A stretch of DNA of 64,000 bases, taken from positions 3,382 to 67,381 of IMG/VR virus record IMGVR_UViG_3300031885_000008; one strand, given 5' to 3'. The notes below the pieces were generated by a model. That model saw only the letters and a program-made list of their open reading frames with translations, had not been told where the DNA came from and did not search any database. How positions within the stretch are numbered: position 1 is the first letter of the stretch; each line of letters opens with the position of its first letter. This DNA is from a virus. Below are positions 1,299-53,140 of this stretch, in pieces. Both the position numbers and the translations under genes were made by a program.

Positions 1299-2099
1299 CT
1301 AGGGCGAGCGTCTCAGAACCCGACCCCACTTCGACAAAACCTCCCACTGCTCGCGCGTGACGAATCCAGACGACCATCCTATCAGGGCTGAGATCGAAGA
1401 TGCACTGCCCATAAAGTGAGAAAGATGCTCGTGCAGCTCCGGCCCCGTCTTCGAGACGGCTGTCTTTGTCTCATCGCTTCCAGGAGCGGCAACGAACTTG
1501 TAGTTGCCAAAGCTCGGAATAATGACGTCGAAGCCAAGCTTTTTCCAGTCGGCAAGCCCTTGCTTCACCTGGGCTTCCCCAACCACGTAGAGCTGGGGGC
1601 TTCCATAATCGACCTCGACCTCCGCGTTGGAAACCCCAGGCTTGGCGAAGGCCTCGAATGGAAACGTCTTATGACCTCGCGGCAAACCGTAGCTTGTCAT
1701 CCCGAGCACACGGTCCGAACCGAGATACGCGCGAGACTGAGCAAATAGACTGTTCGCCTCGCGTACCTGATTCTTGAGACCCAGCTCTGGGTCGAGCAGC
1801 CAACCGTCGACGGAACCGTTTGTGCATTCGATCATGTTGTGGAGGAACAGATCAATCCGATCGTGCCAACAGTAGCCCCAAACGTGTGCCGACACCCCAG
1901 CGGTTTTGAAGGCGTCAGCGTAATTCTGCACTTGGATCGGCTTGTTGACCCAGACCGAATTGTTTTCGTCGTGCCAGGGGCCTCCAATCGCTACCCACGA
2001 AATGCCTCGCTTGGCGTACTGGTCGGCTAGACGTGGCGGATCCAATTTCTTTGAATCGAGGTGGCGGAGGTAGAGACCGATACCGGTTGGGATGCTCAT
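1299..2099 (-). CDS. Putative endolysin (TIM-barrel glycoside hydrolase, GH25-like)
   Basis: GISWVAI...VWGY...WLLDPE (DxE)...GMTSY...SPQLY pattern; between tail fibre and holin. Confidence 0.55.
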   Translation of the reverse strand: MSIPTGIGLYLRHLDSKKLDPPRLADQYAKRGISWVAIGGPWHDENNSVWVNKPIQVQNYADAFKTAGVSAHVWGYCWHDRIDLFLHNMIECTNGSVDGWLLDPELGLKNQVREANSLFAQSRAYLGSDRVLGMTSYGLPRGHKTFPFEAFAKPGVSNAEVEVDYGSPQLYVVGEAQVKQGLADWKKLGFDVIIPSFGNYKFVAAPGSDETKTAVSKTGPELHEHLSHFMGSASSISALIGWSSGFVTREQWEVLSKWGRVLRRSP

Positions 2100-2107
2100 G
2101 ATATTTA

Positions 2108-3982
2108 TTAGGCTCGTGTCAAGGAGTACCACAAATCGTAATTATCACAGATGACGAAACGTCCATTGACGTACTTTATGCAGTTAGGATACGCAATAGT
2201 TGCGGCTCCAGAAACATCACCAATCTCTGCCTCAGACCACACTTTACCGCCACCCGTAGAAACTTGTGAATGATGCGAACCAGCCGCAATGTTTACCGAC
2301 CTGTACGAAGCCACTCCATACACACTAGACGCAAGATTCGCAATCGTCCAGGTCGTCCCATCTTGTGACCAATACGCTTTCGTTCCGCCAACAGCAATGA
2401 ATCGGTCTGCGGTGCCATCGTAACAAACACCAAAGAGTTCAGATGGTGGGGAAGATAGGCCTCCAGATACATCGGTCCACGTCGTACCGTTCGTCGAACG
2501 CATGACGAATGCGGAGCTGCTTTTCGATCCGACAGCTACGATTATTCCATTGTTATTACTTGCGACGGAATTCAACGTTGTGATACTAGAAGGAACTGTT
2601 GCTGCAGACCACGACGTCCCAGCCCCGGAATACCATGCTTTGCTTTTACCAACAGCAACTACGAGGTTGGCATTCGGGTCATACGCGAAAGCGCGTATCT
2701 CATCTCCAGTAGTTGTTGATGCAACAGTCTGTGAAGTCCACGACGAACACGTTCCGGTATTTGCCGTCTCAACAATTGCACCAGAAGCATTCTTTCCACC
2801 AACAATCGTCAAACCAAGAGATGTAACATAAATGACGCCAGTGATAGCAGTTGGCGTACTACCGAAGGATCCGCAGGCAGCCCAGGTATAACCCAAATTC
2901 GAGTAGATTGCGTGACACGTTGGTCCTGCAGCAAACACGCCAATAAGGATATAGTTTGCTCCGTTGTGTGTAATATCGTAAGGCGCGTAGCTAGATCCAC
3001 CATACACATCATCGAATGGTACAGCTTCTCGTGTCCAGTTCCCTCCAATAAGCATCGCAAAATCGCGATTCACCGCACCAAGATGGTTGAGTATGGATTC
3101 TAGTTGATCGCCGATAGATGCCGCTGAGATCGGAAATTCAGGGTAATTTATGGGGGATATTGCTGCCGATCCAACTCGATCGGATCCAGCGTTGGCCACT
3201 AAGTCGGTCACAATCTTGTCAAGCTGCGCTTCAACCGTCGCAGCCGGGTTGGTTGTTGAATCTTTCCACACCGGCCCCCCTGCATAATTGACCGCTGAGG
3301 CCACATGCTCACTAGATGTACCAGCTTTGTGTAGCGCGAGATCGGAGCCACTTCCAGAAATTGCATCGGCGAGAACTTGGACCGCCGCTTCGGTTGTCCC
3401 TACACCAACACTCGTTCCACTTGTCGTAGTAATCGCCCACTGACGACGTGTTGTCAGTACGTTAGCATTCAGAATCTGGGTCTGCCCGTAAATGAGCGTG
3501 ATGTCCGCCAAGAGGATCTCGTCGGAACGAAGGACGGGCGGTGTCCCTGGCGGCGTGCCCTCGGCGCCCTGGGCCACGTGAATCTCGTAACTCTCCGCCT
3601 TGTCGAAGTAGACGGTTGCCCCTGCGAGATCGAGACGTGGGTCTGAAACAACACGCTTGAACTTCGCGAAGACGCTGAGCTTCTTCCCGTTTCCGGGCGT
3701 CGTCACCGCGGTCGAGTTGGCGTTCTCGTCCACCGAACAGTTGACGTTTAGTAGGGACGTCCAACAGATACGCTGCCCGAGCTGGTCGTAGATCGTCGCG
3801 CCTACAATATCGACCGTCATGTTTGTAGTGCCGGCATGCTGGGATACGCCTCCACCTGAGGTGATCCCGATAATGCCGTTGTCGAGCGCCCAGTTCTGTT
3901 GTGCGGCTTCACATGCGTCGAACGCTTGGCCCAATTCTTGCTCTGATACCTTTTGCCCCGAGAACCAATCATAACTTTGCAT
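2108..3982 (-). CDS. Tail fibre / receptor-binding protein with C-terminal beta-propeller
   Basis: Start MQSYDWF; Asp-box-like repeats STNGTTW, SQDGTTW, SNLGYTW, STGGGKVW; follows baseplate genes. Confidence 0.75.
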   Translation of the reverse strand: MQSYDWFSGQKVSEQELGQAFDACEAAQQNWALDNGIIGITSGGGVSQHAGTTNMTVDIVGATIYDQLGQRICWTSLLNVNCSVDENANSTAVTTPGNGKKLSVFAKFKRVVSDPRLDLAGATVYFDKAESYEIHVAQGAEGTPPGTPPVLRSDEILLADITLIYGQTQILNANVLTTRRQWAITTTSGTSVGVGTTEAAVQVLADAISGSGSDLALHKAGTSSEHVASAVNYAGGPVWKDSTTNPAATVEAQLDKIVTDLVANAGSDRVGSAAISPINYPEFPISAASIGDQLESILNHLGAVNRDFAMLIGGNWTREAVPFDDVYGGSSYAPYDITHNGANYILIGVFAAGPTCHAIYSNLGYTWAACGSFGSTPTAITGVIYVTSLGLTIVGGKNASGAIVETANTGTCSSWTSQTVASTTTGDEIRAFAYDPNANLVVAVGKSKAWYSGAGTSWSAATVPSSITTLNSVASNNNGIIVAVGSKSSSAFVMRSTNGTTWTDVSGGLSSPPSELFGVCYDGTADRFIAVGGTKAYWSQDGTTWTIANLASSVYGVASYRSVNIAAGSHHSQVSTGGGKVWSEAEIGDVSGAATIAYPNCIKYVNGRFVICDNYDLWYSLTRA

Positions 3983-38881: not shown

Positions 38882-39460
38882 CTAGGCAACTCCCTTGAGA
38901 AGCTCAATCAATCCGGTCTTCTTCATTCGGTGATCGAATTCTATGTTCTTGGAGTCCGCCATGGAAATCAGCTCCTCCCTTGTCATGTGCTCAAGGTCAA
39001 ACGAAGGAGACACCTGAGGGGAGACGCCAGCCGACATCACGATATTCTGCATTGCAGGAACGAGATCCTGCGCCGCAGCTCGAGCCGCAGTGACATGATC
39101 GACTTCTTTTGCAGCAATTTTGCCAAAGGACGAGGCGATTTTCTCGCCCTCGTGCTTAGGCTGGGCCGAAGGCGCGACGGTCTTCGGCTGGAACATGTCG
39201 GCGAGCGCGGCCCCTGCCGGACCGGCCATTGCCATGGCCAGCTCCCGCCGATTGATCTCCCGCCACTCCTCCTCCGTCTCCGCGATCTGCATGTAGGGCG
39301 TACCAGTTCCCTGCTTCAGAGGACGTAGCATTTTCACATGTTCCGCCGCCAGTTGATACCAACGGCCTTCCTCAAACAACATCCCTCCAACCGTGAATCG
39401 ACGACACAAGGCCCCCTTTGCCACGTCGAAAGGTTGCAGCCGAATGTACAGCATACCCAT
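38882..39460 (-). CDS. Protein with C-terminal Rho-N/HeH-like domain
   Basis: DLEHMTREELISMA...MKKTGLIELL. Confidence 0.7.
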   Translation of the reverse strand: MGMLYIRLQPFDVAKGALCRRFTVGGMLFEEGRWYQLAAEHVKMLRPLKQGTGTPYMQIAETEEEWREINRRELAMAMAGPAGAALADMFQPKTVAPSAQPKHEGEKIASSFGKIAAKEVDHVTAARAAAQDLVPAMQNIVMSAGVSPQVSPSFDLEHMTREELISMADSKNIEFDHRMKKTGLIELLKGVA

Positions 39461-40339: not shown

Positions 40340-41272
40340 TCAGACGGCGCGAACTCCAGTTGCCTTCACCACTGCGGGCTCATGGGCGAATCGGAAATCC
40401 ACCCGAGCCGTCACCACGATGATGTACACGCCGGCCGAGGCGTCCTTGTCGGTGTCGATTCGGATATTCCTCCAAATGCCGAAAAGCATGTTCGCGGGAT
40501 CCGTGAAAAGCACCACTGTCTCGTTGGTGCTTCCGCCGAGATTCACCGGGAAAATCGGAACGCCAATCACAGGAATTCCCTGGAACGGACGAGATTCCGA
40601 AGCCTGAACTTGCTCATCACCCAGAGGCGTCGCGCGATCGCCGAGGCTCTCCTGGTAATCGATATTGGCCTCATCCGCGGTGAAGAAGCGAAGGCTTCTT
40701 CGATCACGCCGAAACGCCGACGGCATGGTCTTCAACGCGTCTTTCAGCACTGACCGCTGAAGCGTAGCGCCACCGGCCGCGACAGTGTTCGTGAACGCCG
40801 ACGTGATGAACCCGTTCAGCGTCTTGAGCAGCTCATCGCTGGACGAGGTGATCCCGTTGAATGCCAACTCCTCCAGCTCCAACGCGATCTTGGCAGCCAT
40901 CGTCTCCTGTACGGTTTGCTCGAACCGCTGCCGCTCGATCGAATCCTCCAACGCCTCAAACGAAAGTCTCGTCTCCGCCTTCACGAGTTGGGCGTCCAGC
41001 TCCACCTTGCTGGTGGTCGGAACAGAACGCTGTGCGTAGGGCAGTGCCGTCGCTTCGGTTCCCTTCCTCAGCGTCCGACCCTCATACCGAATCTTCTCCC
41101 TCAATTCCTTTGGTGACGTCATGTCCACACGCGTCATCATGGGAATCACAACTGCCTGATCGATGAGCAGTTGAATGAACCGATCTCGCTGCGCCGACTG
41201 AAGAAGGCCGCCGGGCGCGAAATTCGACAGAAGAAAATCTGCCTTTTGGACTATGAACCTGTTGTCTTCCAT
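40340..41272 (-). CDS. Major capsid protein (HK97 fold)
   Basis: Start MEDNRF after GAGGAG; GGLL...RFI...ALEDSIE...ELAFNG...TARVD. Confidence 0.9.
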   Translation of the reverse strand: MEDNRFIVQKADFLLSNFAPGGLLQSAQRDRFIQLLIDQAVVIPMMTRVDMTSPKELREKIRYEGRTLRKGTEATALPYAQRSVPTTSKVELDAQLVKAETRLSFEALEDSIERQRFEQTVQETMAAKIALELEELAFNGITSSSDELLKTLNGFITSAFTNTVAAGGATLQRSVLKDALKTMPSAFRRDRRSLRFFTADEANIDYQESLGDRATPLGDEQVQASESRPFQGIPVIGVPIFPVNLGGSTNETVVLFTDPANMLFGIWRNIRIDTDKDASAGVYIIVVTARVDFRFAHEPAVVKATGVRAV

Positions 41273-41285
41273 TTCACGCGCTCCT

Positions 41286-42554
41286 CTACATAATCCATGG
41301 CGATTTGAGAACGCCACGGCGATCCGCATTTGCCTCAGGCTTGCCCTCGGGGCGGCTCGCTGGAATCTGCGGTGTGGATGCAATCTTCTCCACCGTAGAC
41401 ACCAACGCGTCAAGCCGCTTCATCACCGATGCAAGCACGCCTTCACCCTTGCTGGCCGGATCATCTCCGGTCGGACCCACCCCAACGTTGGGAAGAACCC
41501 CGGACTCGACCGCCGGTGGTATCGGCTGGTCCACCATGGCCCGCTTCTCAGCCGTCGTGATCAGCGCATCGACACGCCTCTTCAGCTCTTCCACAACCTT
41601 TGTCAACTGATCCACCAGCAGGGTTTGAGCAGCCGTCGGCTCTTCTGCGTTTGCCGATTCAGGCAAAAGCGCCTTCGTGACGCCGCACATCTCGACCTGC
41701 AAGGCGGCCAATGCCTCGGGGTCCGGCGCCTCAGCGATTCGCTGAATCACCGAAGCCAGCACTTTCATTTTGTCTGCGAATTCCGTTCCCAGAGCGGAAA
41801 GGGAAGCGACCACAGGCGCATCCGGAGGACTCGCTTGGGTCTCCTCTGCCTTTTGCTCCAGGGCCACAGGAGTTTCTTCCATGACATTCTCCTCGACCTT
41901 GGCAACCTCAGCACCTGAGGTCGGCGATGGATATTTCTCAACCAACGTATTCAGAGCTATTGCGAGCTGCCGAATTTTCGTGATGCAGTCTGACGCGAGT
42001 GAATCTTCCTGCGCCGCCTGCTTAGACAGCTCCAACGCTTGCTCGCCAATGGCGGCTAGGGTTGTGGCGACGACGCCCTCCGCCTTTGCAACCGGCGAAG
42101 GATACCGCGAAATTACACTCCCCAACAGATCGGCGATTGCCTTGATCTCTACACCGAGGGCGTTGTCCAGCGGAGCGTCCGAGGCTGCCGTTGTCTCTTC
42201 CGAATCCTTCACCATGTTGGCAACGGATACGGTACGCTCCAACACCTCGGTCAAAATGCGCAAGATGCCCTCCTTCACCGTCGAGGGCATCCCCGCCGAG
42301 CCACTTCCTTCAGCCGAGCTTCCCTCCGGAGACGTAGCTGGCTGCCCAACTTCTTCTGCCTTATTGATATTGTCCACGGATCCACCTCGTTGCTTGACCA
42401 CAAGGAAACGGCGTCGATTGGCGGCTCGGTCAACGATTGAAACCTCTTCCACAAGGATGTCGTGCAATCGAAACGCGGCTTCGTCCTCGTCGGGACTCCC
42501 TCCGAGGAACGCTCTCGCAACAGCTAGCACGCTATCCAGTTTTCTGATTTCCAC
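41286..42554 (-). CDS. Scaffold protein carrying an N-terminal prohead-protease fragment
   Basis: RLHDILVEEVSIVDRAAN...FLVVK, then Ala/Glu/Pro-rich helical region; precedes MCP. Confidence 0.75.
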   Translation of the reverse strand: MEIRKLDSVLAVARAFLGGSPDEDEAAFRLHDILVEEVSIVDRAANRRRFLVVKQRGGSVDNINKAEEVGQPATSPEGSSAEGSGSAGMPSTVKEGILRILTEVLERTVSVANMVKDSEETTAASDAPLDNALGVEIKAIADLLGSVISRYPSPVAKAEGVVATTLAAIGEQALELSKQAAQEDSLASDCITKIRQLAIALNTLVEKYPSPTSGAEVAKVEENVMEETPVALEQKAEETQASPPDAPVVASLSALGTEFADKMKVLASVIQRIAEAPDPEALAALQVEMCGVTKALLPESANAEEPTAAQTLLVDQLTKVVEELKRRVDALITTAEKRAMVDQPIPPAVESGVLPNVGVGPTGDDPASKGEGVLASVMKRLDALVSTVEKIASTPQIPASRPEGKPEANADRRGVLKSPWIM

Positions 42555-42562
42555 GTTGTTGA

Positions 42563-45500
42563 CTATATCTCGCGATTGTTACAGGACGAAAGCTTTTCTC
42601 GCAATGCTGTGCCGCCCATTGAAAATCCAGTAAACTCACCCGCCTGAATGGCCGCCCATATTTTGTCGTCTCTAACTCTGGAAGCCAAGAACCATGTTCC
42701 AGTCGGAAACGTTTCTTCCCCGTGCGTCTCTGGTTGCTTGGAGAGGTAGGACTCCAAAACTTGTATGCCCTCGATCGGCTCACCTTGGTGCATAACCCGG
42801 AACTTTCCGCCGAAAAATTCCAAAAACGAATGAGCAGCTTTGCGTACGTCCGCAGCCGTGTACACGTCGCCCTGCGCATCAGTCTCATCTGGAATCAGCA
42901 CCACGCCAAACACATATCGCTCTGAGGTGTCCTTGGTTGGCTCCACAGCCTTCACGATACGCACTGCACGGCCATTCTTGCGAACGTTTTTCATGTCCGC
43001 CTCTCCAGCCTCCAAGGCATCTTTTGAACCAGAGGAGATCTCTCCTGGACGAAGCAACGCCTTCAACTCCGAAATCGTTGTCGGAGGCATATCAACTTTC
43101 GCCAGTGCCTGCGCCGGCCCAAACCACCTAATGCGAATCGGAGGCCCCTCCTCGAAAAATATTTCGGTCGTTGTCGTCGCGATAACGTCTCCGACATTCG
43201 CATCCAGTTTACGGTTTCCCGTCCGACCGACCATCACCCAATGCTTCCCGTTCAGCTCGACAGGCTCAGCCCACTGAGACAGCTCCCCCTCTGGAATTGG
43301 ACCGATGGCGCCAACAAAATTGTAAACGCCAGGCGACCCTTTCACCTCGTGCCGTTCAACAACCATCGCGAGAATTTCCCGGACGACTTTCACCTTCACC
43401 CACAAATCCTGCTCCCCACCGAGCGAGTAGGTGGAGCCGATCTGTTTGAGCATCGCCCCCTCAGACCCGGGCTTTGCACTCATCACCTTCATCCGCTGAA
43501 GGAGTTCCTCCCGAGAAACCGCAAGCAACCCGGGAGCCTTCAAAATGTGGGGAGCCGAATCCTTATGTTCGAGCAACCAGGCGCCCAAACTCGCTTCGCG
43601 TTTTGCCAGCGGTTGCGCAAGTAGGTTCCCCAACGTGGGGTGATACAGCATGTCAAACACAACAAACCGAAGCTGCTCATCGTCAGCCGGCGCTGTCCCT
43701 CGGAACTGCGCCAAATCTGCACGGGGGAGAAACTCATCGGTGGTACCTGGCACGAGCGCCATAATCTCACCGTCGAGAATGAAGCTCCCCCCGAGGCCTT
43801 CCAAATCCTTTGTCAGGCCAGGCAGGATCTTAGCGAGGTCGCGCTGCGCGTCCTCCGTATAAATCATCACCCCCTCATCCAAAACGTCATCGTCGAGACC
43901 GGCCTCCCATCGTTCCGCGATTGCTCGAAAGCCGTTGTACTTTGGCTCAACTCGAACGCCATCCGCAAGTAGGGCGTCGGTGAAGGCTTCGCGAGCGGCC
44001 GTCTCGGGATCTGTGAATCGATTGGAGGGACGCGGCGCAGGTTTCATCGGCTGAAACAAAGCTGGAGGCCGAAGTTTCTCGCGGTCTCCCCCCCGGTCGT
44101 CAGTCTCAGACCTCGATGCAATGTCCCACATTTGCATTCCGTCCTCCCGCACCCGAACGGACTTCTCTATCGAGGGCACATTCCTGGACGGCACACTTCC
44201 AGGCGAAAAAATCCAAAAGTCGCTTCCGACTTCTTCCAGGACCAGCGTAAACAAGCCCTTCAGTTTGGACCCCCGAAACCGAAGCTTCTTGAAGGTTGGC
44301 TGATCGTCCAACACGTCGACCTTTCCCTGGTCGATTATCTTCATTGTCGAAGGAGTCGCCTTTGTATTGTTCAGACGAATTCCGCCAACTTCAAGCCCTG
44401 GCGAGGCATCCCCCTCGAACGTCAGAAGCTCATCGCTGCCCTCAACCAAAACCGCCAAAATTGATTCCTCACCTGATAAAGGATCAATTTGCAGTTGAAA
44501 ATCTTGTACACGCCCTCCCGCTGGAACAGGAAGCATCAGGTGGAAAATTTGCCTACTGGGTGTCCCACGAACAACGGTCTGCCCCTTCCAATATTGCCAG
44601 GACAGTACAAAGTCCGAAACACGAACCTGCTTATCAAGCTGCTCGACGTCGATGGCGTCGGAACGCACCTTGGTGGAGATTCTCGTGTAATCTCCGTCGA
44701 CGAAACGAACGTTCTCCTCAGTGAAAAACTTGGAGGACACCAACGCATCCCGAATTTTTCGGGCCTCAGCTTCCCCGTCAGCCTCCCAAAACCGAAACTC
44801 ACGTGGCGTGATTGCCATCAACGACGAGGGCATCGCCGACTGCCCAAGCGGAGGCATCGCGCCAGTCTCCACCGAACGACTGCGAAGGATCGAAGGCAAC
44901 GCAACCTTGGCAAATCCGGACGTCCAGAACATCTCGCCCGTGCCAGTGAGATCTTCAGTAGACCGGCTGACGCCGCCTTCGAGCATGCGGAACGTCAAGG
45001 TCCCCTCAAACTCTGGCGTACCAAACACAAAATACTCGTGAAAATGGGGATCTTGTTTGCCCCATTCGACTTTGAGCTTCGCCAGCTCGACGTAAACGCC
45101 TGCCTCAAATCGCGTCGCTCCAACCGACCCTGGCTCGAACACAACGTCCCCAATCGTCAGCCACTCGAGAGGCTGCCTCGACTTCGGAACGGCGTAGACA
45201 CGGCTCGGAAGGATCATCGCCTTGTTGGCCGCCGACCCCTCCATATCAAATGGAGCCATGACACGATTGGCTTCCTCAATCGTATCCACTTTCCCAGTAA
45301 TTCCAGGCTTCATCGCCGCAATCGTCCATCCAACCAGATAGTCGGCGACCTGCATACGGAGGTCGAGATGATAGCCCGACCCCCTAAAATGAGCCTGTAG
45401 AACTCCGGACCGCTCCCCAAGCTTCTTCGGCCAATCTAAAAGCGGGTCGTCTTGCTTCGCTACCATCTCGATCTGGACTTTTCTGGCATGCGGAACCAGC

Positions 45501-46600
45501 ACCAGATCGTACAACGGAACGTGGGTCGTGAACGGACCCCCCTGCGAATCGTCATGAAACTGAACACGGGAAGACAGCCGAGGGGGCAATGCGCGGCCAA
45601 GCCGAAACTTGATCACATGCCTGGTCTCTTCATCCAACGGACCCCGAATGAGCACGTCAATATCATTGTCCGACTTCCGATGGTTGCACAATGACCCCAC
45701 CAAAAAGACCGCCGGCATTCGCAGAGCCATCGGTTGGGACCAGTGCGCCAGCACCTCGTCCAAGGTCGCCGGGTCATCGTGATGCTTCCCAAGTCCGCTC
45801 GGATGAATCACCGCAAACTTTGAACCAATAACAGACTTGAGAACTGCAGCCGCCCCATCCAATCCAGGATCGGACGTCAACTCGAGTCCCCTCCGGCGAC
45901 CTTCCTCCATTACGAAAATGTAAGCGTTGACTACGTCTTCCCGTGAAGCGCCGCCTCCACTGTTAGCCGAGTTCCCCGCAAAAAATTCCGTAAACCACAG
46001 GATCAAATCTTTCTGGGCAGTCCTCAAATCCTCATCTGAGAGAGAGCGTAGTCGCTCAGGATCGGGTGCGGCAACAAACTGCATCACGTCAAACGCTACG
46101 GCCTTGACCACATCCTGGTCAAAGTCGACCTCGCCGCCGAAGCGTCGTCCTTCTGGAGCTTGCCGAAGCTTCAACGGAGGATCAAACACAACCACGAGCT
46201 GTAGCGGCAAATACCAGATGTTCTTCTCGGTTGAAAATTCCTCGGCCGTCAGCGGGTCTATTCCAGCTCGCTGCTCCTTGGACAGTTCAACCATTGAAGC
46301 CATGGCTATCGGAGCGTCTTGAGCGACAACGGCCCATACGAACACGCTCTTCGGGTTGCTCTGGGAAAGCTCGTTCACGAGCGCCTGGGGATCTCCAACT
46401 CGTTCGGTGCGCTGGCGACGAGAAAGCAACGCTGCGGACTCCCCCTGGCGCAGCCGTCTTACAAGGAATTGGGGATCCGGAACTTTGAGCGCCGGCAGCA
46501 CGCCACGAGGTGGCTCAAATTTGCTCACCCGAAACGCTCCCTGCCCTGAAATAGTTTCCGTGGTCAAACCCGTCACCGCCGCTGGAAAAGAATCTTCCAT
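42563..46600 (-). CDS. Polyprotein: ASCH-like + DenV-like + nucleotidyltransferase + two LigD-PE-like + ATP-dependent DNA ligase + XkdF-type prohead protease
   Basis: VFLVGSL...SDNDIDVLI; LQAH...HLDLR; EPKYNGFR / LDGEI / FVVFD / EGAMLK / WVKVK; FGVVLIPD..DAQGD...MHQG...GFSMGG. ASCH and DenV calls are weaker than the rest. Confidence 0.85.
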   Translation of the reverse strand: MEDSFPAAVTGLTTETISGQGAFRVSKFEPPRGVLPALKVPDPQFLVRRLRQGESAALLSRRQRTERVGDPQALVNELSQSNPKSVFVWAVVAQDAPIAMASMVELSKEQRAGIDPLTAEEFSTEKNIWYLPLQLVVVFDPPLKLRQAPEGRRFGGEVDFDQDVVKAVAFDVMQFVAAPDPERLRSLSDEDLRTAQKDLILWFTEFFAGNSANSGGGASREDVVNAYIFVMEEGRRRGLELTSDPGLDGAAAVLKSVIGSKFAVIHPSGLGKHHDDPATLDEVLAHWSQPMALRMPAVFLVGSLCNHRKSDNDIDVLIRGPLDEETRHVIKFRLGRALPPRLSSRVQFHDDSQGGPFTTHVPLYDLVLVPHARKVQIEMVAKQDDPLLDWPKKLGERSGVLQAHFRGSGYHLDLRMQVADYLVGWTIAAMKPGITGKVDTIEEANRVMAPFDMEGSAANKAMILPSRVYAVPKSRQPLEWLTIGDVVFEPGSVGATRFEAGVYVELAKLKVEWGKQDPHFHEYFVFGTPEFEGTLTFRMLEGGVSRSTEDLTGTGEMFWTSGFAKVALPSILRSRSVETGAMPPLGQSAMPSSLMAITPREFRFWEADGEAEARKIRDALVSSKFFTEENVRFVDGDYTRISTKVRSDAIDVEQLDKQVRVSDFVLSWQYWKGQTVVRGTPSRQIFHLMLPVPAGGRVQDFQLQIDPLSGEESILAVLVEGSDELLTFEGDASPGLEVGGIRLNNTKATPSTMKIIDQGKVDVLDDQPTFKKLRFRGSKLKGLFTLVLEEVGSDFWIFSPGSVPSRNVPSIEKSVRVREDGMQMWDIASRSETDDRGGDREKLRPPALFQPMKPAPRPSNRFTDPETAAREAFTDALLADGVRVEPKYNGFRAIAERWEAGLDDDVLDEGVMIYTEDAQRDLAKILPGLTKDLEGLGGSFILDGEIMALVPGTTDEFLPRADLAQFRGTAPADDEQLRFVVFDMLYHPTLGNLLAQPLAKREASLGAWLLEHKDSAPHILKAPGLLAVSREELLQRMKVMSAKPGSEGAMLKQIGSTYSLGGEQDLWVKVKVVREILAMVVERHEVKGSPGVYNFVGAIGPIPEGELSQWAEPVELNGKHWVMVGRTGNRKLDANVGDVIATTTTEIFFEEGPPIRIRWFGPAQALAKVDMPPTTISELKALLRPGEISSGSKDALEAGEADMKNVRKNGRAVRIVKAVEPTKDTSERYVFGVVLIPDETDAQGDVYTAADVRKAAHSFLEFFGGKFRVMHQGEPIEGIQVLESYLSKQPETHGEETFPTGTWFLASRVRDDKIWAAIQAGEFTGFSMGGTALREKLSSCNNREI

Positions 46601-46979: not shown

Positions 46980-47416
46980 GATTTTTCCCTCCGCGCTCGA
47001 GTACCACCTGTGACCTTGAGCTGCACCTTGTCCGCTGTTCCAAGCGTCAACGCTGTAATACGGAAGGCAGCATCATGCCCTCGAACGGCTGCCAACGCAG
47101 TGATGCCTGTGGTCAACGAGGCAACCGTCGAAAGAATTCTCCATCGCCGCCCAACCGTCGAAATAGCATCGGGCGTCGCGATGAGAATTTCAATAGTTAG
47201 CGCCCCTCCAACGTCGGCCACCCCCAGCTTTTCCCAGTCAGCTACAAGCTGGACGTCGTCCCACTCTCGAGCGTCCAAGGTAACTGCCTCGGAGATAACT
47301 CCCGCAGAAATCTCCCCGGCGCTCAAATTATCAGGCGTCCAATCTGCAGCATCCGAAGCAGCTCGATTTGGCCGAACGACTACCGCAGCGTCTTGGCTGT
47401 AAAGCCTCTTTTTCAC
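46976..47416 (-). CDS. Hypothetical beta-rich protein
   Basis: GTGA overlap with portal stop; GAGGAGG RBS. Confidence 0.6.
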   Translation of the reverse strand: MKKRLYSQDAAVVVRPNRAASDAADWTPDNLSAGEISAGVISEAVTLDAREWDDVQLVADWEKLGVADVGGALTIEILIATPDAISTVGRRWRILSTVASLTTGITALAAVRGHDAAFRITALTLGTADKVQLKVTGGTRARREKS

Positions 47417-49203
47417 TGAGCATCCTCCTCATTCGATTTTCGAGAGAGCCTCCCGACAGCCTCGTCAAGATCCTGAAGCGTCGTATCCGCCACCTGCGGC
47501 AATGCTGGACCAGCAATTCCGACAAACGGTTGGGCCGGCTGTCGTTGCACCCCCGGCAGCGACGAATTCGTGTCACCCATGGTCAGCTCCACCATGGTCA
47601 ACTGCAGCGGTTGCTTTGCCCAATCCTGTTCGATGGGCGCAAACGCGCATCCCATAATGTCACTTGCCAACTCCCGACCTTCGTTCGGCGTAATAACACC
47701 GACCTTTGACAAACTCGAAATAACCTCAGCCCCGGTGCTCTGATCTCGAGATTGGGGTCCGTTCGTCCGAAATAGCCATAACAAAATTCCAAGCTCGGAA
47801 AATACAACTCTATTTACCCACGAATCGAACTCTGTACGTTCCGGATTGAATACTTGCTCATCGGCAAAGCGTAGGGAACTTTCAGCCGTCCCGCGGTTGA
47901 AATCACGAACGTCTCCTCTCAACAACCTAGGCAGTCGAAAAGAAGATCCAACCTTGTCGGTATTTCTCTCGTCGTATTTTTGAAACAGCGCATCCCCTTG
48001 CTGGGCGTCGGTGAGCCGTTCCATCTTGATCACGGGGTTTTCTCGAGGAGACAACGGATCGTTATCTGTCTCAGCCTCTATCACGAGAATCTTGTGAAAA
48101 TTCTCTCTGCCACGCAAATTGTCTCGAATGTAGGTCTCAATCGTGGCTACGGATTCCGCCGCAAGCCGACCACCAGACACGAGCAAGGCCAGAGGAGGAA
48201 CGGATTTGTTGTCAAAATAATTGTAGTTCACTTCCTCTGAGGCTCGCGACCCCAACACCGACAACAAACTTCCAATCCAACGAGGTTGCCCGTACGGCTC
48301 GCCCGTGGCGTATATCTTGAAGTGCGCAATTTCAGTTGCAGGTTGATCGTGCTGCCCGGCATGCTTCGTAAACGTGGCAATATCCGAATAGACGTAGCCT
48401 GTATCCCGCGATACAACCCTCGGATCTCCGAGTTCCTTGAACCAAACAAGCTTTGCCCCAATGGCTTGAACGTATCGCCTGAAAAAACGAGGTTGTCGGA
48501 TTGTTTCCCAACTCAGCCCATGTCGAACCCGCTCCGTCACAATAATCGGATCGACATCCAAACCTGTACAACGCATGTATGAGGGTGGCACGTGTACAAA
48601 TCGAGCAAGCCGTCCTTGCCGATCCCTCAAACATTCCCAGTAACCATTTCCGGTTATCTCAATATCCTGCCGGGTTATTCTCCTAAGCGTAACGAACGAA
48701 CTCGACGGGCTGACATGCTCAAAAAATGACACGAGCTTTCCATACTCAAGCCGTGCACGAATTTTGAGACCCTCGATAGCCAGGGCGACCTCCGCATCGG
48801 AGGGTCGCAAATGCACAGGGTCATTTGCGTTTGGCTGAAGGGATGACCCAGGAAGACTGACATGCTCCTCCGCTTCAGAAACACGCTCAAGCCACATAGC
48901 GTCGCGAACGCGCTCAAACGAAGCGTCAGAGTTCAAATCAATTCGTGGCGCAAACCGATGCCCAAGACCATCAATGTTCGTAACGTACGCCTGCACATTT
49001 GGGCCGAGCGCCCCAGAATTCTCGTACCACCGAATGAGAACCAACGGATCGTAAACTGGCGCAAGAACCTGGGCTTGACGAAAAAGTCCCCCAAGGATGT
49101 CCGCCTGCTCGTCCTGTATTGACGCTGGCGCATGGACGTCAGCGCCGGCAATCCGAGCCTTCACCGTCGTGTGCCTCGGAAACTCTCGCGACGTATCAGT
49201 CAT
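47413..49203 (-). CDS. Portal protein (PBSX family)
   Basis: DIEITGNGYWE...EIAHFK...YGQPRW...YFDNKSVP...FNRGTAE...TPNEGR. Confidence 0.93.
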   Translation of the reverse strand: MTDTSREFPRHTTVKARIAGADVHAPASIQDEQADILGGLFRQAQVLAPVYDPLVLIRWYENSGALGPNVQAYVTNIDGLGHRFAPRIDLNSDASFERVRDAMWLERVSEAEEHVSLPGSSLQPNANDPVHLRPSDAEVALAIEGLKIRARLEYGKLVSFFEHVSPSSSFVTLRRITRQDIEITGNGYWECLRDRQGRLARFVHVPPSYMRCTGLDVDPIIVTERVRHGLSWETIRQPRFFRRYVQAIGAKLVWFKELGDPRVVSRDTGYVYSDIATFTKHAGQHDQPATEIAHFKIYATGEPYGQPRWIGSLLSVLGSRASEEVNYNYFDNKSVPPLALLVSGGRLAAESVATIETYIRDNLRGRENFHKILVIEAETDNDPLSPRENPVIKMERLTDAQQGDALFQKYDERNTDKVGSSFRLPRLLRGDVRDFNRGTAESSLRFADEQVFNPERTEFDSWVNRVVFSELGILLWLFRTNGPQSRDQSTGAEVISSLSKVGVITPNEGRELASDIMGCAFAPIEQDWAKQPLQLTMVELTMGDTNSSLPGVQRQPAQPFVGIAGPALPQVADTTLQDLDEAVGRLSRKSNEEDAQ

Positions 49204-49433
49204 GTTGGCGACGCTATCACGAAGATCTCCGAATCGCACGTGTCGTCCCACAAATTATCTTGGAAGCTGTCATCGATCACCACCTCATCACCACCAAATA
49301 TTTCCGATCCCACCAGGAAACAACAAACGACAGCTACAGCAATAACGAGTGCAAAAATATCTACAGTCCACCTCGAACGCGCCAGGTCCCAAGGTTCAGA
49401 CGTACGTCGACGTCTATAGCTCTCCAGCTCCAT
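49200..49433 (-). CDS. Small membrane protein
   Basis: GGAGGAGGAG RBS; IFALVIAVAVVCCFLVG; ATGA overlap with portal start. Confidence 0.55.
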   Translation of the reverse strand: MELESYRRRRTSEPWDLARSRWTVDIFALVIAVAVVCCFLVGSEIFGGDEVVIDDSFQDNLWDDTCDSEIFVIASPT

Positions 49434-49694: not shown

Positions 49695-49853
49695 CCGAGC
49701 TACCGCTTCGATGGAAAGCTGGCAGCCTGCCACGTGACCGTCACCTCGGCGCCGGTCACCCCCTGGCTCGTCGCTGAGCTACCGTCACGTGGTAGCCAGG
49801 AGGCCCGCCCGGAGGTCAACCCCCCCGCGTCTGGGCGGGTCTCCAACTATTTT
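49695..49853 (+). ncRNA. Candidate structured non-coding RNA
   Basis: 12-bp, 6-bp and 15-bp stems whose only non-Watson-Crick pairs are G-U on the + strand; promoter upstream. Confidence 0.45.
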
Positions 49854-51892
49854 CCCAAAATCCTTACGTTGCTCTGTGCCGACTGTCGTTCCTTACGCTT
49901 TCGACGATGCGTCTCATACATGCGCGATGCTTCTCTCGCAAACCAACTGTTATGCACGGCAATCCCCTCGACCACAAAAGATTCATCATGCTTGACGTGC
50001 AAGTTGCAGACAAGCCCCTCGTACATCACATGACGTGCGTACTCAATACGCACAACATCACCAGCGCCATCCTCCTGCATGCCGTCTGGAACCCCCGGGG
50101 CAAAGACGAAATCACTCTGCGGTCCTTCTCCAGCACGAAGTGACACGGCTGAACGGAAATCCCATGCATGCGGAACCGCCCTAGTCTCATGCTCAGGGTT
50201 GACCCATGGCAACGCCGACCATACCGGATGCTCCGCAGTCATGAGAATCTCTACAAACCCGCAGGCGCGCAACCGGACCGCATCCCCTCGATACCATGTG
50301 CACGTCGTCCCAGTGACCTCCTGCCACCTCGACTTGTGGGTGAGGACGAAGTCCCCTCGAACAACTTGCTCAATCGGGACAAGGCCGCGCTTCGTCACCA
50401 CGAGATACCCAGGTGCGATGCATGCCATGAGCAGGTCGCCGGTATGCCTGCCAGGATCGTACCCGACGAGGTCAGAAATCCATTTCCCAACCTGAGGGTC
50501 TACAATACGGTTTCCTTGCTGGCATGGAATGATCCACCGACCAGCCGCAAGCTCCCCCGCAAGACTCTCCACACCATACTCGGGCGAGAGCTTATTCCTC
50601 CCTGTCGTGAACGACCGGACGCGGAGACCAGGATATTTCTCCCTTGTCCACTGCAAAATAAACTCTTGGGCCGCATTATTCTCTACAACCATTACTGATC
50701 GAAACCGGTCGTGCACCGAAGCAAGCCGGTCGATGATCTCTGGTCCCTGCCACCTACCAGACTGAATTTCAAGAATCTGTCGAGACCCATCCGGCCAGGT
50801 CAACAGCGTAAAAATCACTGACAAATCCGACTTCTCTCGCCCGGTCGACACGTCCACACCAGAAACAACCATCACATTATCGGGCAAACCTCCCATAGCC
50901 AGGATCGAATCATTGATCTGAAATGCCTCTGCAAGCATCGGATACCGAGCCGCCAAGTCGTTCAGGTCCTGCACCAGCGGATGACCCTCCCCACGAGCTA
51001 GGCACGTCTCAATCCATTCCCTCTTGAACCTCGCCGTGCTCTCGTCCCGTGGCTGACAAAGCATCTGCCTCGAGAACTCCACCGGCCCCAGCGTCTTCGT
51101 GCGAACATGCTCGATGCGAGACAACGGCCAGCGTTCCGGCCACGTCGAGCGCCCAACGTCGTCGATCACGGGATACCGTTTTGCCCACCACCCTTGCCGC
51201 TCGAGAACATGCGCCATGTCATCCGGATGCCACGCGTTCGTCAGGAATGCGATCCACGCATCCTCCGACAGTCGCGTAAACGCCGATGAGCGGATCCACT
51301 CCTCTATCTTCTCCCGCTGATACCTCGTCCGCGTGTTGTTCTCGTTGAGGACGTCGTCAACGATGAGACCGTCCAGCCTGGCCCCCTGCATATTCCCACC
51401 CTCGGGCGAGTAGGCCTGCACCGATGGATCCTTTATGCCGCTCGGACGCCGCACTTCGATAGCCGAATCGGTCCAAAACAATCCCCGTCGGAGATTGGGG
51501 AACACATCGCGAAGGGTCTTGCTGTTCACGATGTAGCCTTGAATCGTACGGATGACCTTCTTCGCAGCATTCTGCGTGGCACTCAACACAGCAATTCGCT
51601 GGCGAGGATCACGCCCAAGAACCCACAACGGCCGGGCGATAGCCATCAACGAGGTCTTCCCGGCATCTGGATGCGTCCAGAGCACCACGTTCCGATTCTT
51701 CTCGAGCACGTCGCTCCACTCGAAATGGAACGGCATGAGCGTAATCGGCTCCCCCTTCTCTTCGTCCCGCAATACAAGGGAGCAAAAAGTCGGAAAATCC
51801 ACACGGGCACACTGAAGAAGCGAGGAGTACGCTGACGCCGACGCGGCCAGCAGAGGATGCAGGTCTTCCGACAGGTCAAGCCCAACTGACAT
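49847..51892 (-). CDS. terL: Terminase large subunit (intein-containing)
   Basis: Walker A HPDAGKT, Walker B LIVDD, nuclease GVDVS...VENN...GDLLMA. Confidence 0.93.
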   Translation of the reverse strand: MSVGLDLSEDLHPLLAASASAYSSLLQCARVDFPTFCSLVLRDEEKGEPITLMPFHFEWSDVLEKNRNVVLWTHPDAGKTSLMAIARPLWVLGRDPRQRIAVLSATQNAAKKVIRTIQGYIVNSKTLRDVFPNLRRGLFWTDSAIEVRRPSGIKDPSVQAYSPEGGNMQGARLDGLIVDDVLNENNTRTRYQREKIEEWIRSSAFTRLSEDAWIAFLTNAWHPDDMAHVLERQGWWAKRYPVIDDVGRSTWPERWPLSRIEHVRTKTLGPVEFSRQMLCQPRDESTARFKREWIETCLARGEGHPLVQDLNDLAARYPMLAEAFQINDSILAMGGLPDNVMVVSGVDVSTGREKSDLSVIFTLLTWPDGSRQILEIQSGRWQGPEIIDRLASVHDRFRSVMVVENNAAQEFILQWTREKYPGLRVRSFTTGRNKLSPEYGVESLAGELAAGRWIIPCQQGNRIVDPQVGKWISDLVGYDPGRHTGDLLMACIAPGYLVVTKRGLVPIEQVVRGDFVLTHKSRWQEVTGTTCTWYRGDAVRLRACGFVEILMTAEHPVWSALPWVNPEHETRAVPHAWDFRSAVSLRAGEGPQSDFVFAPGVPDGMQEDGAGDVVRIEYARHVMYEGLVCNLHVKHDESFVVEGIAVHNSWFAREASRMYETHRRKRKERQSAQSNVRILGK
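49949..50422 (-). mobile_element. Mini-intein (158 aa) in terL
   Basis: CIAPGYLVVTKRGLVPIE...TAEHPV...VCNLHV...FVVEGIAVHN followed by Ser; no endonuclease domain. Confidence 0.92.
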
Positions 51893-51908
51893 GCGTCTAC
51901 CTTCCTTC

Positions 51909-53140
51909 GGGCAGAGGGCTGTTGCCTTCAGGCGACAGATGAATGCCCGCTCCAACAAACACAATTTTTTGCCAAGCAGCTATCTTTATGCTAGCTTTCT
52001 CATGGTGCGTAAGACCTTCAAGTACCGACTATATCCGACCAAGGCACAAGCCAGCAAATTCGGCGCGATCCTTGAAGAATGTCGCTGGCTGTACAACAAA
52101 ATGCTGGAGGAGCACAAGTACACCTGGGAAGTCGAGTAGAAGGTGATTGGCCTGTACGACCAGCATGCTCGACTGCCTGCGCTCAAGTCGGCCAGGCCGT
52201 CTTTGGAAACAGCACACAGCCAGGTTCTCCAGAACGTCTGCCTCCGGCTTGACCTCGCATTCAAGGCTTTCTTCCGGCGGGTCAAAGCGGGTGAAGCACC
52301 CGGCCACCCGCGCTTCAAGAGCTTCGGCCGGTACGACAGCTTCACGTTCCCGCAAGCCCCGTCCGGATGCCAACTTCGTGGCGAAAAGCTGGTCGTGTCC
52401 AAGGTCGGTCCAGTCAAGATAGTCCTGCACCGTCCGGTCGAAGGCGTCGTCAAGACAGCGACGATCCGGCGCACAGCGACGGGCAAGTGGTTCGCGTTCT
52501 TCTCTTGCGAGCTTGAGCCAAAGCCCTTGCCAACCAGCACCGAGCGCGCAGGAATCGACGTCGGCCTCATGACGTTCGCGACCCTGTCGAACGGCGAGAA
52601 GATCGAAAACCCTCGGTTCTTTCGACGGGAAGAGAAGGCGCTCGCGCAAGCTCAGCGCAAGCTCTCGGCAACGCCTAAAGGCACGCCCAAGCGGGTCAAA
52701 CTTCGCAAGGCTGTTGCCCGTGTTCACGAGCGCAGCACGAACCGGCGGCACGACTTCATCCATCAGCAGAGCCGCAGGCTCGTCAACAGGTTCGGCCTGA
52801 TCGCAGTCGAAGACCTGAATGTCAACCGCATGGGAAGAGAGCGAAAGTTCTCCAAGAGCATTCACGACGCGGCGTGGTCGATGTTCTTCGCGTGCCTGTC
52901 CTTCAAAGCGGAAGAAGCTGGTCGGACGATGGTCGCGGTGAATCCGGCGTACACCTCGCAGGACTGTTCGCGGTGCGGACAGCGACAGCTCATGCCCTTG
53001 GCAGAGCGTGTCTACCGCTGTCCTTCCTGCGGGCTCGAACTCGATCGGGATCATAACGCGTCGCTCAACATTCTAGCCGTGGGGCTGCACGGCCTGGGCT
53101 TGCCCTAGAAGCCCTCGGCTTTAGCCGAGGGAGCAGTCAC
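51909..53140 (+). mobile_element. IS605/IS1341-type tnpB-only element 3
   Basis: Left end GGGCA-GAGGG-CTGTTGCC-TTCA-GGCGACAG-ATGAA-TGCCC; right end CCCTCGGC-TTTA-GCCGAGGG-AGCAGTCAC. Confidence 0.82.
52002..53108 (+). pseudogene. tnpB: TnpB interrupted by one in-frame TAG (52137-52139)
   Basis: MVRKTFKYRLYP...WEVE*KVIGLY in one frame; GIDVG / VEDL / DRDHNASLNI intact; TTGCCA-17-TAGCTT promoter. Confidence 0.85.

Follow-up and report, generated by a model that had tools for sequence, protein, structure and literature searches.

Why would a phage prohead protease carry, on the same polypeptide, a set of enzymes that repair DNA ends? The question is raised by an open reading frame (ORF) of 1345 aa on the minus strand, at 42563..46600 of a 64,000-nucleotide stretch of viral DNA (positions 3,382 to 67,381 of the IMG/VR virus record IMGVR_UViG_3300031885_000008; this whole stretch is termed the window). 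The source is a linear contig of 67,381 bases that belongs to an uncultured tailed phage and comes from a metagenomic assembly, with a CheckV completeness of 63%. From the N to the C terminus, the polyprotein encoded by this ORF consists of an ASCH-like domain, a helical linker, a Pol-beta-type nucleotidyltransferase (NT), two domains related to the phosphoesterase (PE) of LigD, termed PE1 and PE2, an ATP-dependent DNA ligase with its OB domain, and an XkdF-type protease. Its gene lies in the head-gene block, its active-site residues are conserved, and the architecture recurs in other viral contigs. The explanation that we favor, with about even confidence, is a head-assembly polyprotein: a chain anchored by its protease would be loaded into the procapsid and cut at its linkers, and the enzymes would be ejected with the DNA for end repair.

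The C-terminal part of the polyprotein was recognized by standard family models, and in a Pfam search with the whole chain at E ≤ 1 the ligase and XkdF matches were the only ones. The DNA_ligase_A_M model (PF01068) matched residues 879-1071 with an E value of 1.6e-15 and 57.8 bits, compared with a cut-off of 26.2, and reached 62.5 bits in a six-frame search. On the basis of Pfam, NCBIfam and ligases of the PDB, the adenylation domain was assigned to residues 871-1075 (43376..43990, minus strand, like all features described here). The catalytic residues of such ligases are grouped in motifs named I, III, IV and V. The motif I lysine is K887 in EPKYNG, and motifs III, IV and V are represented by D943/E945, E1047/K1052 and K1069/K1071, respectively. 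In an alignment of 76 sequences, G1048 and K1052 were present in all 76 and K1069 in 75, followed by G890 and E1047 (74 each), E945 (73), K887 (72), D943 (63) and K1071 (60). The OB domain, residues ~1076-1205 (42986..43375), was delimited by profile alignment to 4eq5, 9dfa and 3rr5; the family profile spans these archaeal ligases through the end of the OB domain (for 4eq5, E 8.9e-18 over chain residues 257-562 of 571). A phmmer search of the PDB with the single polyprotein returned ligases only, and the ligase is nearest to archaeal and eukaryotic Lig1-type enzymes. Judged from these matches, the polyprotein appears to hold a two-domain ATP-dependent DNA ligase, composed of adenylation and OB domains. 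At the C terminus, residues 1206-1345 (42566..42985) were assigned to an XkdF-type prohead serine protease with the putative catalytic residues H1271 and S1327. The Peptidase_S78_2/XkdF model (PF14550) matched residues 1222-1334 over positions 7-124 of its 126 with an E value of 3.1e-25 (89 bits; cut-off 24), and PHROGs of head maturation proteases matched as well. H66 and S122 of the domain, which correspond to H1271 and S1327, were invariant in 30 sequences. The XkdF domain is thus best regarded as the probable prohead protease of the phage. Both assignments agree with the original prediction, which had been made from the DNA letters and had named a full ligase with KYNG, K887 and a probable OB domain, followed by an XkdF-like protease.

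The region between the NT and the ligase contains the two PE-like domains, and its predicted structure (residues 396-870) had a mean pLDDT of 86.8. Six PE residues have been found essential by mutation: two His and one Asp on the metal, an Arg and a His on the phosphate, and a Tyr (accessible text of PMC3082917). The second domain, PE2 (residues ~661-803, 44192..44620), was assigned by VIA, Foldseek and profile comparison. VIA aligned 120 of 124 residues to 3p43 with a Z score of 16.7 and a root mean square deviation of 2.3, followed by 3p4h (Z 16.0) and 3n9d (Z 14.3). Foldseek matched the solved LigD PE structures with E values of 7e-7 to 3e-6 and a probability of 1.0, and a profile of PE2 alone matched 3p43 (E 3.3e-11) and 3p4h (E 9.5e-10). 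When PE2 is aligned with 3p4h, I685, H687 and M689 stand opposite the H-x-D-x-R of MbaPE, the site of the first His is W or Q, and the sites of the later catalytic His and Tyr face nonconserved residues. Because the residues that are essential by the published mutational data are replaced, PE2 should be inactive as a phosphoesterase; it may be a dead copy that only binds the DNA end.

PE1 consists of a barrel (residues 396-566) and a helical tail that extends to residue 650 (44651..45415), with H404, H411, D413, R415 and H521-E522-Y523 as its marker residues. It was defined by conservation and by hhalign comparison with PE2 (probability 94.8%, E 4.9e-8, 89 columns), according to which the two domains are related to each other. 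PE1 holds the first four of the essential PE residues (His and His-x-Asp-x-Arg). Among 40 sequences, D413, H521 and E522 were invariant, and H404, H411 and R415 were conserved in at least 90%; the later conserved block reads G514-x-Q516 ... H521-E522-Y523-F524. In the VIA comparison, the best alignment of each PE chain fell on PE2, which left PE1 barely probed. In three relatives, inserts of ~350-380 aa interrupt PE1 at residues ~507-518, just before H521-E522-Y523. One of these relatives, P0022, contains two intein-like inserts with Hint and LAGLIDADG domains, and the one in PE1 is, by this domain content, an intein. Since inteins usually occupy functionally important sites, the position of the inserts points to the functional importance of this part of PE1. 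We regard PE1 as a derived PE that is probably active. A LigD PE-like domain with Q-x-H...H-x-D-L-R and a second, degenerate copy had both been predicted, and both were found; the refinement is that PE2, not PE1, fits the solved PE structures.

The NT was placed at residues ~281-380 (45461..45760). Pol-beta nucleotidyltransferases share the motif G-[GS]-x(9-13)-D-x-[DE] together with a third carboxylate. In the polyprotein, these positions are G302, S303, D313, D315 and D351, and in 110 sequences they were conserved as G302 (107), G or S at 303 (106), D313 (108), D315 (104, with Glu in four more) and Asp or Glu at 351 (85). This agrees with the GS...DxD motif for which a nucleotidyltransferase had been proposed at this place. 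Comparisons of fold and profile gave weak matches: Foldseek found MntA/MNT nucleotidyltransferases (7bxo_E, E 0.12, probability 0.87), the Atlas leads were PF01909/PF18765 clusters with scores of 0.84-0.87, below the 0.9 mark, and the family profile matched Pol X with an E value of about 2. The NT domain did not appear among the 50 best VIA matches. Residues ~281-380 are therefore described as a candidate small MNT/Pol-beta-type nucleotidyltransferase, an assignment that rests mainly on the motif.

N-terminal to the NT, the prediction for residues 1-395 (mean pLDDT 86.2) revealed a further module that had been absent from the original domain list. With moderate confidence, residues ~32-167 (N1, 46100..46507) adopt an ASCH/PUA-like fold, which VIA matched to 6kir (Z 9.4) and to ZmASCH, 5guq (Z 9.2). 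Against BFVD, N1 matched ASCH-domain phage proteins (E 7.9e-4) and one "ART-PolyVal-like" phage protein (E 1.8e-4). A Foldseek search of the PDB with residues 1-395 gave no match at E ≤ 0.001, and the Atlas leads for residues 28-270 were discarded, as they had only sub-noise scores (0.77, AstA). The helical region that follows (N2, residues ~174-260, 45821..46081) matched in VIA only helical hairpins such as ribosomal L29 with Z of about 7, a common arrangement. Among 41 sequences of this region, R237 was invariant and E221, N225, A226 and E233 were conserved in at least 90%. When the segments 1-280, 271-400, 391-580, 571-670, 651-880 and 1068-1222 were searched separately against Pfam, none gave a match at E ≤ 10.

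A fusion of this kind in a metagenomic contig could be suspected to be a product of misassembly, which had been named as a finding that would speak against the prediction. This was rejected: the same 1345-aa ORF with the same neighbors is present in two other IMG/VR contigs, L003 (6816-10853) and L004, with 95-98% identity over the part tested, and the fusion recurs widely. A protein library search with residues 1-880 yielded 1175 cluster representatives at E ≤ 1e-3, of which 246 remained at the stricter limit of E ≤ 1e-30, and XkdF was present in 93 of the 150 library proteins listed. A pattern scan of viral contigs gave 96 relatives, from which 80 loci with 71 distinct PE-bearing ORFs were kept. 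XkdF was fused in 31 of these ORFs, a ligase in 26, and both in 20. A capsid gene was found downstream in 29 of the 31 loci with fused XkdF, and a relative of the 422-aa scaffold-like protein described below stood directly downstream in 24; these neighbors were counted by phmmer with the window's own proteins, so that distantly related portals, capsids and proteases escape the count, and several loci are truncated where their contig ends.

The neighbors of the gene in the window are those of a prohead protease. On the minus strand, the order is large terminase (TerL; 49847-51964, 705 aa), portal protein (47413..49251; PHROG 12, E 1.7e-31; Pfam Phage_portal, E 3.1e-17), two small ORFs (146 and 125 aa) that matched no family, the polyprotein, an acidic ORF of 422 aa, and the HK97-type major capsid protein (40340..41413; PHROG 1623, E 2.6e-78; Pfam Phage_capsid). 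The XkdF domain is encoded between the portal and the scaffold/capsid genes, as is the case for XkdF prohead proteases. The predicted protease position between portal and scaffold was therefore confirmed, with the qualification that the polyprotein gene is two small ORFs away from the portal and not its direct neighbor. Within the contig, which is 63% complete, the polyprotein ORF holds the sole detected XkdF and the sole detected ATP-dependent ligase, and no S78 or ClpP protease was found. The Pfam LigD_N model (PF13298) gave no match across the contig at E ≤ 10. The capsid ORF is 310 aa long in L004 and L006, and the true start of the capsid protein is probably near residue 48 of the ORF at 40340..41413. 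Two side observations were made in the same block. Residues 515-551 of the large terminase gave a weak, subthreshold Hint_2 match (E 5.3e-4, 20.8 bits; cut-off 28.4) that could stem from an intein or its remnant. After the head genes, a 192-aa ORF (38882-39460, minus strand) matched, with its C-terminal ~40 residues, PHROGs of Arc-like repressors and of "endonuclease VII" with E values of 5e-6 to 1e-4.

The protein encoded directly after the polyprotein offers a possible link to the procapsid. This 422-aa protein (41286..42554) is acidic, rich in Ala, Glu and Val, and made of repeated helical-looking blocks; no family library names it, and by its sequence and its conserved place before the capsid gene it looks like a scaffolding protein. 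Its N-terminal peptide, residues 25-55 (...RLHDILVEEVSIVDRAANRRRFLVVK..., 42390..42482), is conserved as ...RLxDILVEEVSLVDRAANRRRFLVVK... with the core EVSLVDRAAN in 37 of the 37 loci that have both genes, and E37, S39, V41, A45 and K54 were invariant in 30 sequences. A complex predicted for the XkdF domain with residues 1-85 of the scaffold-like protein scored 0.83, compared with 0.00 for the best of three controls; in the benchmark, 58 of 80 solved complexes and 2 of 110 mismatched pairs attained this mark. Own alignments were supplied for the prediction, the runs shared at least 78% of contacts, and the partner pLDDT was at least 50. In the predicted interface, scaffold residues 25-55 lie against protease residues around S122, on the strand of the catalytic serine. 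In other phages, protease and scaffold form one chain (phrog_3017, 402 positions, with XkdF at 45-158), and the XkdF protease and the scaffold peptide seem, on this prediction, to be a pair that was split at the gene border. Whether the peptide is docked or forms the last strand of the protease fold, the arrangement suggests that the protease and everything fused to it are tied to the scaffold and would therefore be located inside the procapsid. A fusion of polyprotein and scaffold by frameshifting was considered and rejected as unlikely: a TAA stands eight codons before the GTG of the scaffold gene, and no slippery run was seen between this TAA and the TAG of the polyprotein.

If the chain is built into the procapsid, the protease could release its parts. 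The pattern [VIL]-x-K-[ASQ] occurs 10 times in the polyprotein compared with 2.6 expected, a number reached by none of 2000 shuffles, and six of the ten sites are at domain junctions (residues 164, 253, 380, 655, 811 and 1215). In 93 XkdF-bearing relatives, its density was 0.93 per 100 residues in linkers versus 0.37 in domains, a 2.5-fold difference. The motif was present at the OB/XkdF junction in 28 of 54 relatives and at the PE1/PE2 junction in 24 of 50, and it was rare between ligase and OB domain (2 of 46), where the chain should remain intact. This distribution fits a role of the pattern as self-processing sites.

Taken together, the protease slot, the sole detected head protease (of three families searched), the docking prediction and the junction motif make it plausible that the enzymes are loaded into the capsid, as the original prediction had proposed; the support for this part of the proposal is indirect. 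The course proposed below is inferred with regard to uptake into the head, cleavage, ejection and substrate. The N-terminal peptide of the next gene's product would hold the XkdF domain to the scaffolding protein, and all 1345 residues of the chain would thereby become part of the procapsid. Cleavage by the protease at the [VIL]-x-K-[ASQ] linkers would then free the ASCH-like module, the NT, the pair of PE domains and the two-domain ligase. Once freed, the enzymes would remain beside the DNA in the head and most likely enter the next host together with it. In the host, 3' ends would be cleaned, a nucleotide added where needed, and nicks sealed or genome ends joined before the phage genes are expressed.

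Relatives with additional domains are in line with cargo for a new host. In P0003 and P0008, a D12 adenine methyltransferase is inserted in the same chain, and P0022 (2190 aa) contains at residues 1588-1647 a Tad3-like domain of type I Thoeris inhibitors (E 1.8e-7, 31.4 bits, cut-off 27). These modules favor cargo meant for the new host, which would fit counter-defense. The arrangement of the shared domains varies: besides the order of the window, (ASCH)-NT-PE1-PE2-ligase-OB-XkdF, a permuted order NT-ligase-OB-PE1-PE2 was found with or without XkdF. In some relatives (L036, 8969-10333; L037, 10218-11645), a separate NT-PE1-PE2 gene of 726-749 aa is immediately followed by a gene of 455-476 aa with XkdF, an unfused version of this pair. 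The closest relatives in genomes, with 47-49% identity, lie on contigs from Myxococcales bins, and more distant ones (26-33%) lie on contigs from bins of Methanosarcinales, Archaeoglobales, Methanospirareceae, Thermoprotei and others; these host assignments are based on the binning of viral contigs and are uncertain. One contig binned as Myxococcales (JACPVI010000063.1, 105,832 bases) has a PE relative near each end (L087 and L088, 876-19631 and 94451-105832) and may hold either a pair of prophages or a phage genome whose assembly ran on beyond its end.

Several observations weigh against a head-assembly polyprotein with end-repair cargo. XkdF is missing from 40 of the 71 related ORFs, only three of which have an adjoining XkdF gene detectable by phmmer with the window proteins alone, and a homolog in the archaeal virus ANMV-1 does not lie in an obvious head module; because of these two findings, the enzyme module can be taken to work without the protease. 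The HK97-type protease destroys itself and leaves the head, and the retention of cargo is not assured by such a route. The proposed cleavage motif is loose, four of its ten sites are inside domains, and about half of the junctions in relatives do not have it. The high docking score may simply reflect that the next gene encodes, in this peptide, the final strand of the protease fold, and the prediction expresses likeness rather than measured binding. With respect to the enzymes, motif I of the ligase is KYNG and not the usual KxDG, with N at the third position in 47 and D in 24 of the 76 relatives. PE1 had no match to a Pfam PE model, and the best match of a PE1-only profile among 177,635 PDB sequences was 3p4h, aligned on the catalytic motif, with a nonsignificant E value of 1.2. 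PE1 is also without the fifth and sixth catalytic residues at their expected place, where a His and a Tyr follow the Arg by ~32-36 residues; the stretch found there by eye, PKSRQPLEW, contains neither, and its conserved residues are K473, P477 and W480. Their roles may be taken over by H521-E522-Y523, which lie on a later strand. Finally, no Ku (PF02735) was found in the incomplete contig at E ≤ 1.

The evidence for head association would equally serve a rather unlikely alternative, in which the enzymes are loaded into the prohead and act there or during packaging, for example a preadenylated ligase with an end-cleaning enzyme that would seal nicks in the DNA as it is packaged, with no delivery to the next host. 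The sequence is silent on passage through the tail, and a cargo of about 1200 residues is bulky. The methyltransferase and Tad3-like anti-defense domains of the relatives, on the other hand, make most sense in a new host, and known packaged enzymes such as T4 Alt are injected, according to the accessible text of PMC5512222. We consider it distinctly unlikely that the fusion serves coexpression only, so that the chain is cleaved in the cytoplasm of the producing cell, the enzymes mature the replicated DNA, and the protease alone enters the head. The 40 ORFs that lack XkdF agree with such a module working unfused, and as the contig's only detected ATP-dependent ligase is in the polyprotein, the function in replication or maturation has to come from somewhere; however, another ligase may exist in the missing part of the contig. 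Prohead proteases are normally active only in the assembled prohead, and the unfused module still lies in the head-gene block, for instance straight after the portal in five loci (L039-L042 and L045).

A role in the repair of RNA instead of DNA appears very unlikely. PE1 would in that case remove 2',3'-cyclic phosphates or 3'-phosphates, the NT would rebuild 3' ends, the ligase would reseal tRNAs cut by anticodon nucleases of the host, and the ASCH-like domain would bind RNA. This would agree with the KxNG form of motif I in place of KxDG and with the occurrence of CCA- and poly(A)-adding enzymes among the small Pol-beta nucleotidyltransferases. The relatives of the ASCH domain include, by their titles, the RNA-binding ribonuclease ZmASCH and the ac4C amidohydrolase YqfB, and the PE of LigD acts on ribonucleotide 3' ends (accessible text of PMC3082917). 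Against it stand the match of the ligase to DNA ligase families with an OB domain, the addition of DNA adenine methyltransferases in relatives, and a search of the chain for a 5'-kinase domain in Pfam, NCBIfam and PHROGs, which found none. That the locus is an assembly artifact, or that the domains upstream of the protease are functionless, decayed remnants, is barely credible and, as far as can be judged from sequence, refuted. The contig is metagenomic and PE2 appears to be catalytically dead, but two more contigs carry the same ORF, and both the open frame and the catalytic residues have been retained across hundreds of relatives.

Returning to the head-assembly polyprotein, we put forward a wider proposal tentatively and with more doubt than conviction: that many uncultured tailed viruses of bacteria and archaea possess a portable, Ku-independent end-joining kit in the capsid, hung on the scaffold via the protease and cut free by this protease. 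The kit would comprise a ligase that is perhaps preadenylated, a new PE subfamily whose active site has been rebuilt from His-His-Asp-Arg plus His-Glu-Tyr, a dead PE that holds DNA ends, and a minimal nucleotidyltransferase, and it would circularize or repair the incoming genome before expression. If this is true, the kit would blunt restriction, CRISPR and other nucleases and remove the dependence on the host ligase. DNA end repair and ligation would then be a new class of phage function delivered by the virion, beside injected polymerases, ADP-ribosyltransferases and anti-restriction proteins. Fusion to a scaffold-docking prohead protease would in addition be a general rule for loading, which could be reused to bring chosen proteins into capsids. 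As judged from the 1175 cluster representatives, the module is common, and its presence in contigs binned as Myxococcales and several archaeal orders bears on infection by uncultured viruses of both domains. PE1 itself would be an uncharacterized branch of the PE end-healing superfamily with an altered active site, and PE1-PE2 a tandem of enzyme and dead enzyme.

The polyprotein resembles LigD in that a PE barrel, a two-domain ATP-dependent ligase and a nucleotide-adding domain are joined in one chain (LigD and archaeal PEs, PDB 3N9B, 3P43, 3P4H and 5DMP; PMC3082917). It differs from LigD in its NT, which is a Pol-beta-type domain of ~100 aa in place of the primase-polymerase of LigD; searches of the polyprotein in Pfam, NCBIfam and PHROGs gave no AEP-type domain. 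The PE occurs twice: one copy looks active and has a ~40-aa insert and the invariant His-Glu-Tyr block, and the canonical-looking copy is apparently dead. The analogy to LigD drawn in the original prediction held for the PE fold and the ligase and not for the polymerase. Without the polymerase type of LigD, its Ku partner and a match to the Pfam PE model, the polyprotein is LigD-like in logic and not a LigD. Circularization of mycobacteriophages by nonhomologous end joining is reportedly the subject, by its title, of work by Pitcher et al. from 2006. Among 50,697 GenBank phage records, the module matched a single protein, an "ATP-dependent DNA ligase" of 866 aa from ANMV-1, which is an uncultured archaeal virus (AJP62006.1, in KP703175.1). 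This protein shares NT, ligase-OB, PE1 and PE2 with the polyprotein at 27.5-29% identity, but in the permuted order NT, ligase-OB, PE1, PE2, and has neither XkdF nor the ASCH-like domain.

In the literature searched, which included few subscription journals, no description was found of a fusion that joins XkdF, or a prohead protease, to a ligase or PE. The closest known concept is that of the polyvalent proteins (Iyer et al. 2017, PMC5512222), for which the accessible text describes unrelated enzymatic domains, including Pol-beta nucleotidyltransferases, together with an in-built peptidase among virion genes; these proteins are likewise proposed to be packaged, cut and injected. The polyprotein has seven or eight modules, including a peptidase, within a head-gene block, as is characteristic of polyvalent proteins. 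In those proteins, as far as the same text describes them, the anchors are MuF or portal with other types of peptidase, whereas in the present chain this place is taken by the prohead protease, with a set for DNA end repair as cargo. The main text of that article mentions XkdF and LigD zero times and the word "ligase" three times, only for RNA ligases and in references. Loading of enzymes during head assembly, trimming by the head protease and delivery along with the DNA are also known for T4 Alt and internal proteins, P1 Dar/DdrB and the SPN3US ejection proteins (accessible texts of PMC5512222, PMC7411985 and PMC10052503). For T4 Alt, packaging into the head and injection are described, and for P1 DdrB, processing ahead of packaging (PMC5512222, same text). 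In contrast to the polyprotein, the cargoes described in these texts are separate proteins with short targeting sequences, and among those found there none is a ligase or end-healing set or is fused to the protease. The same slot is occupied by the XkdF family in two cultured phages that are nearest to the window by capsid protein, Rhodobacter phage RcZahn (gp17) and Stenotrophomonas phage DLP_5 (DLP05_004), with the layout portal, XkdF, hypothetical protein of 408-474 aa and a capsid protein about 36% identical to that of the window. In DLP_5 (L085), a protein with a ParB-like nuclease domain (1892-3232) lies between portal and XkdF, where the window has the two small ORFs. The XkdF proteins of both phages are stand-alone, with a length of 200-214 aa and no N-terminal cargo; by its slot, the window gene corresponds to that protease with about 1200 residues added in front.

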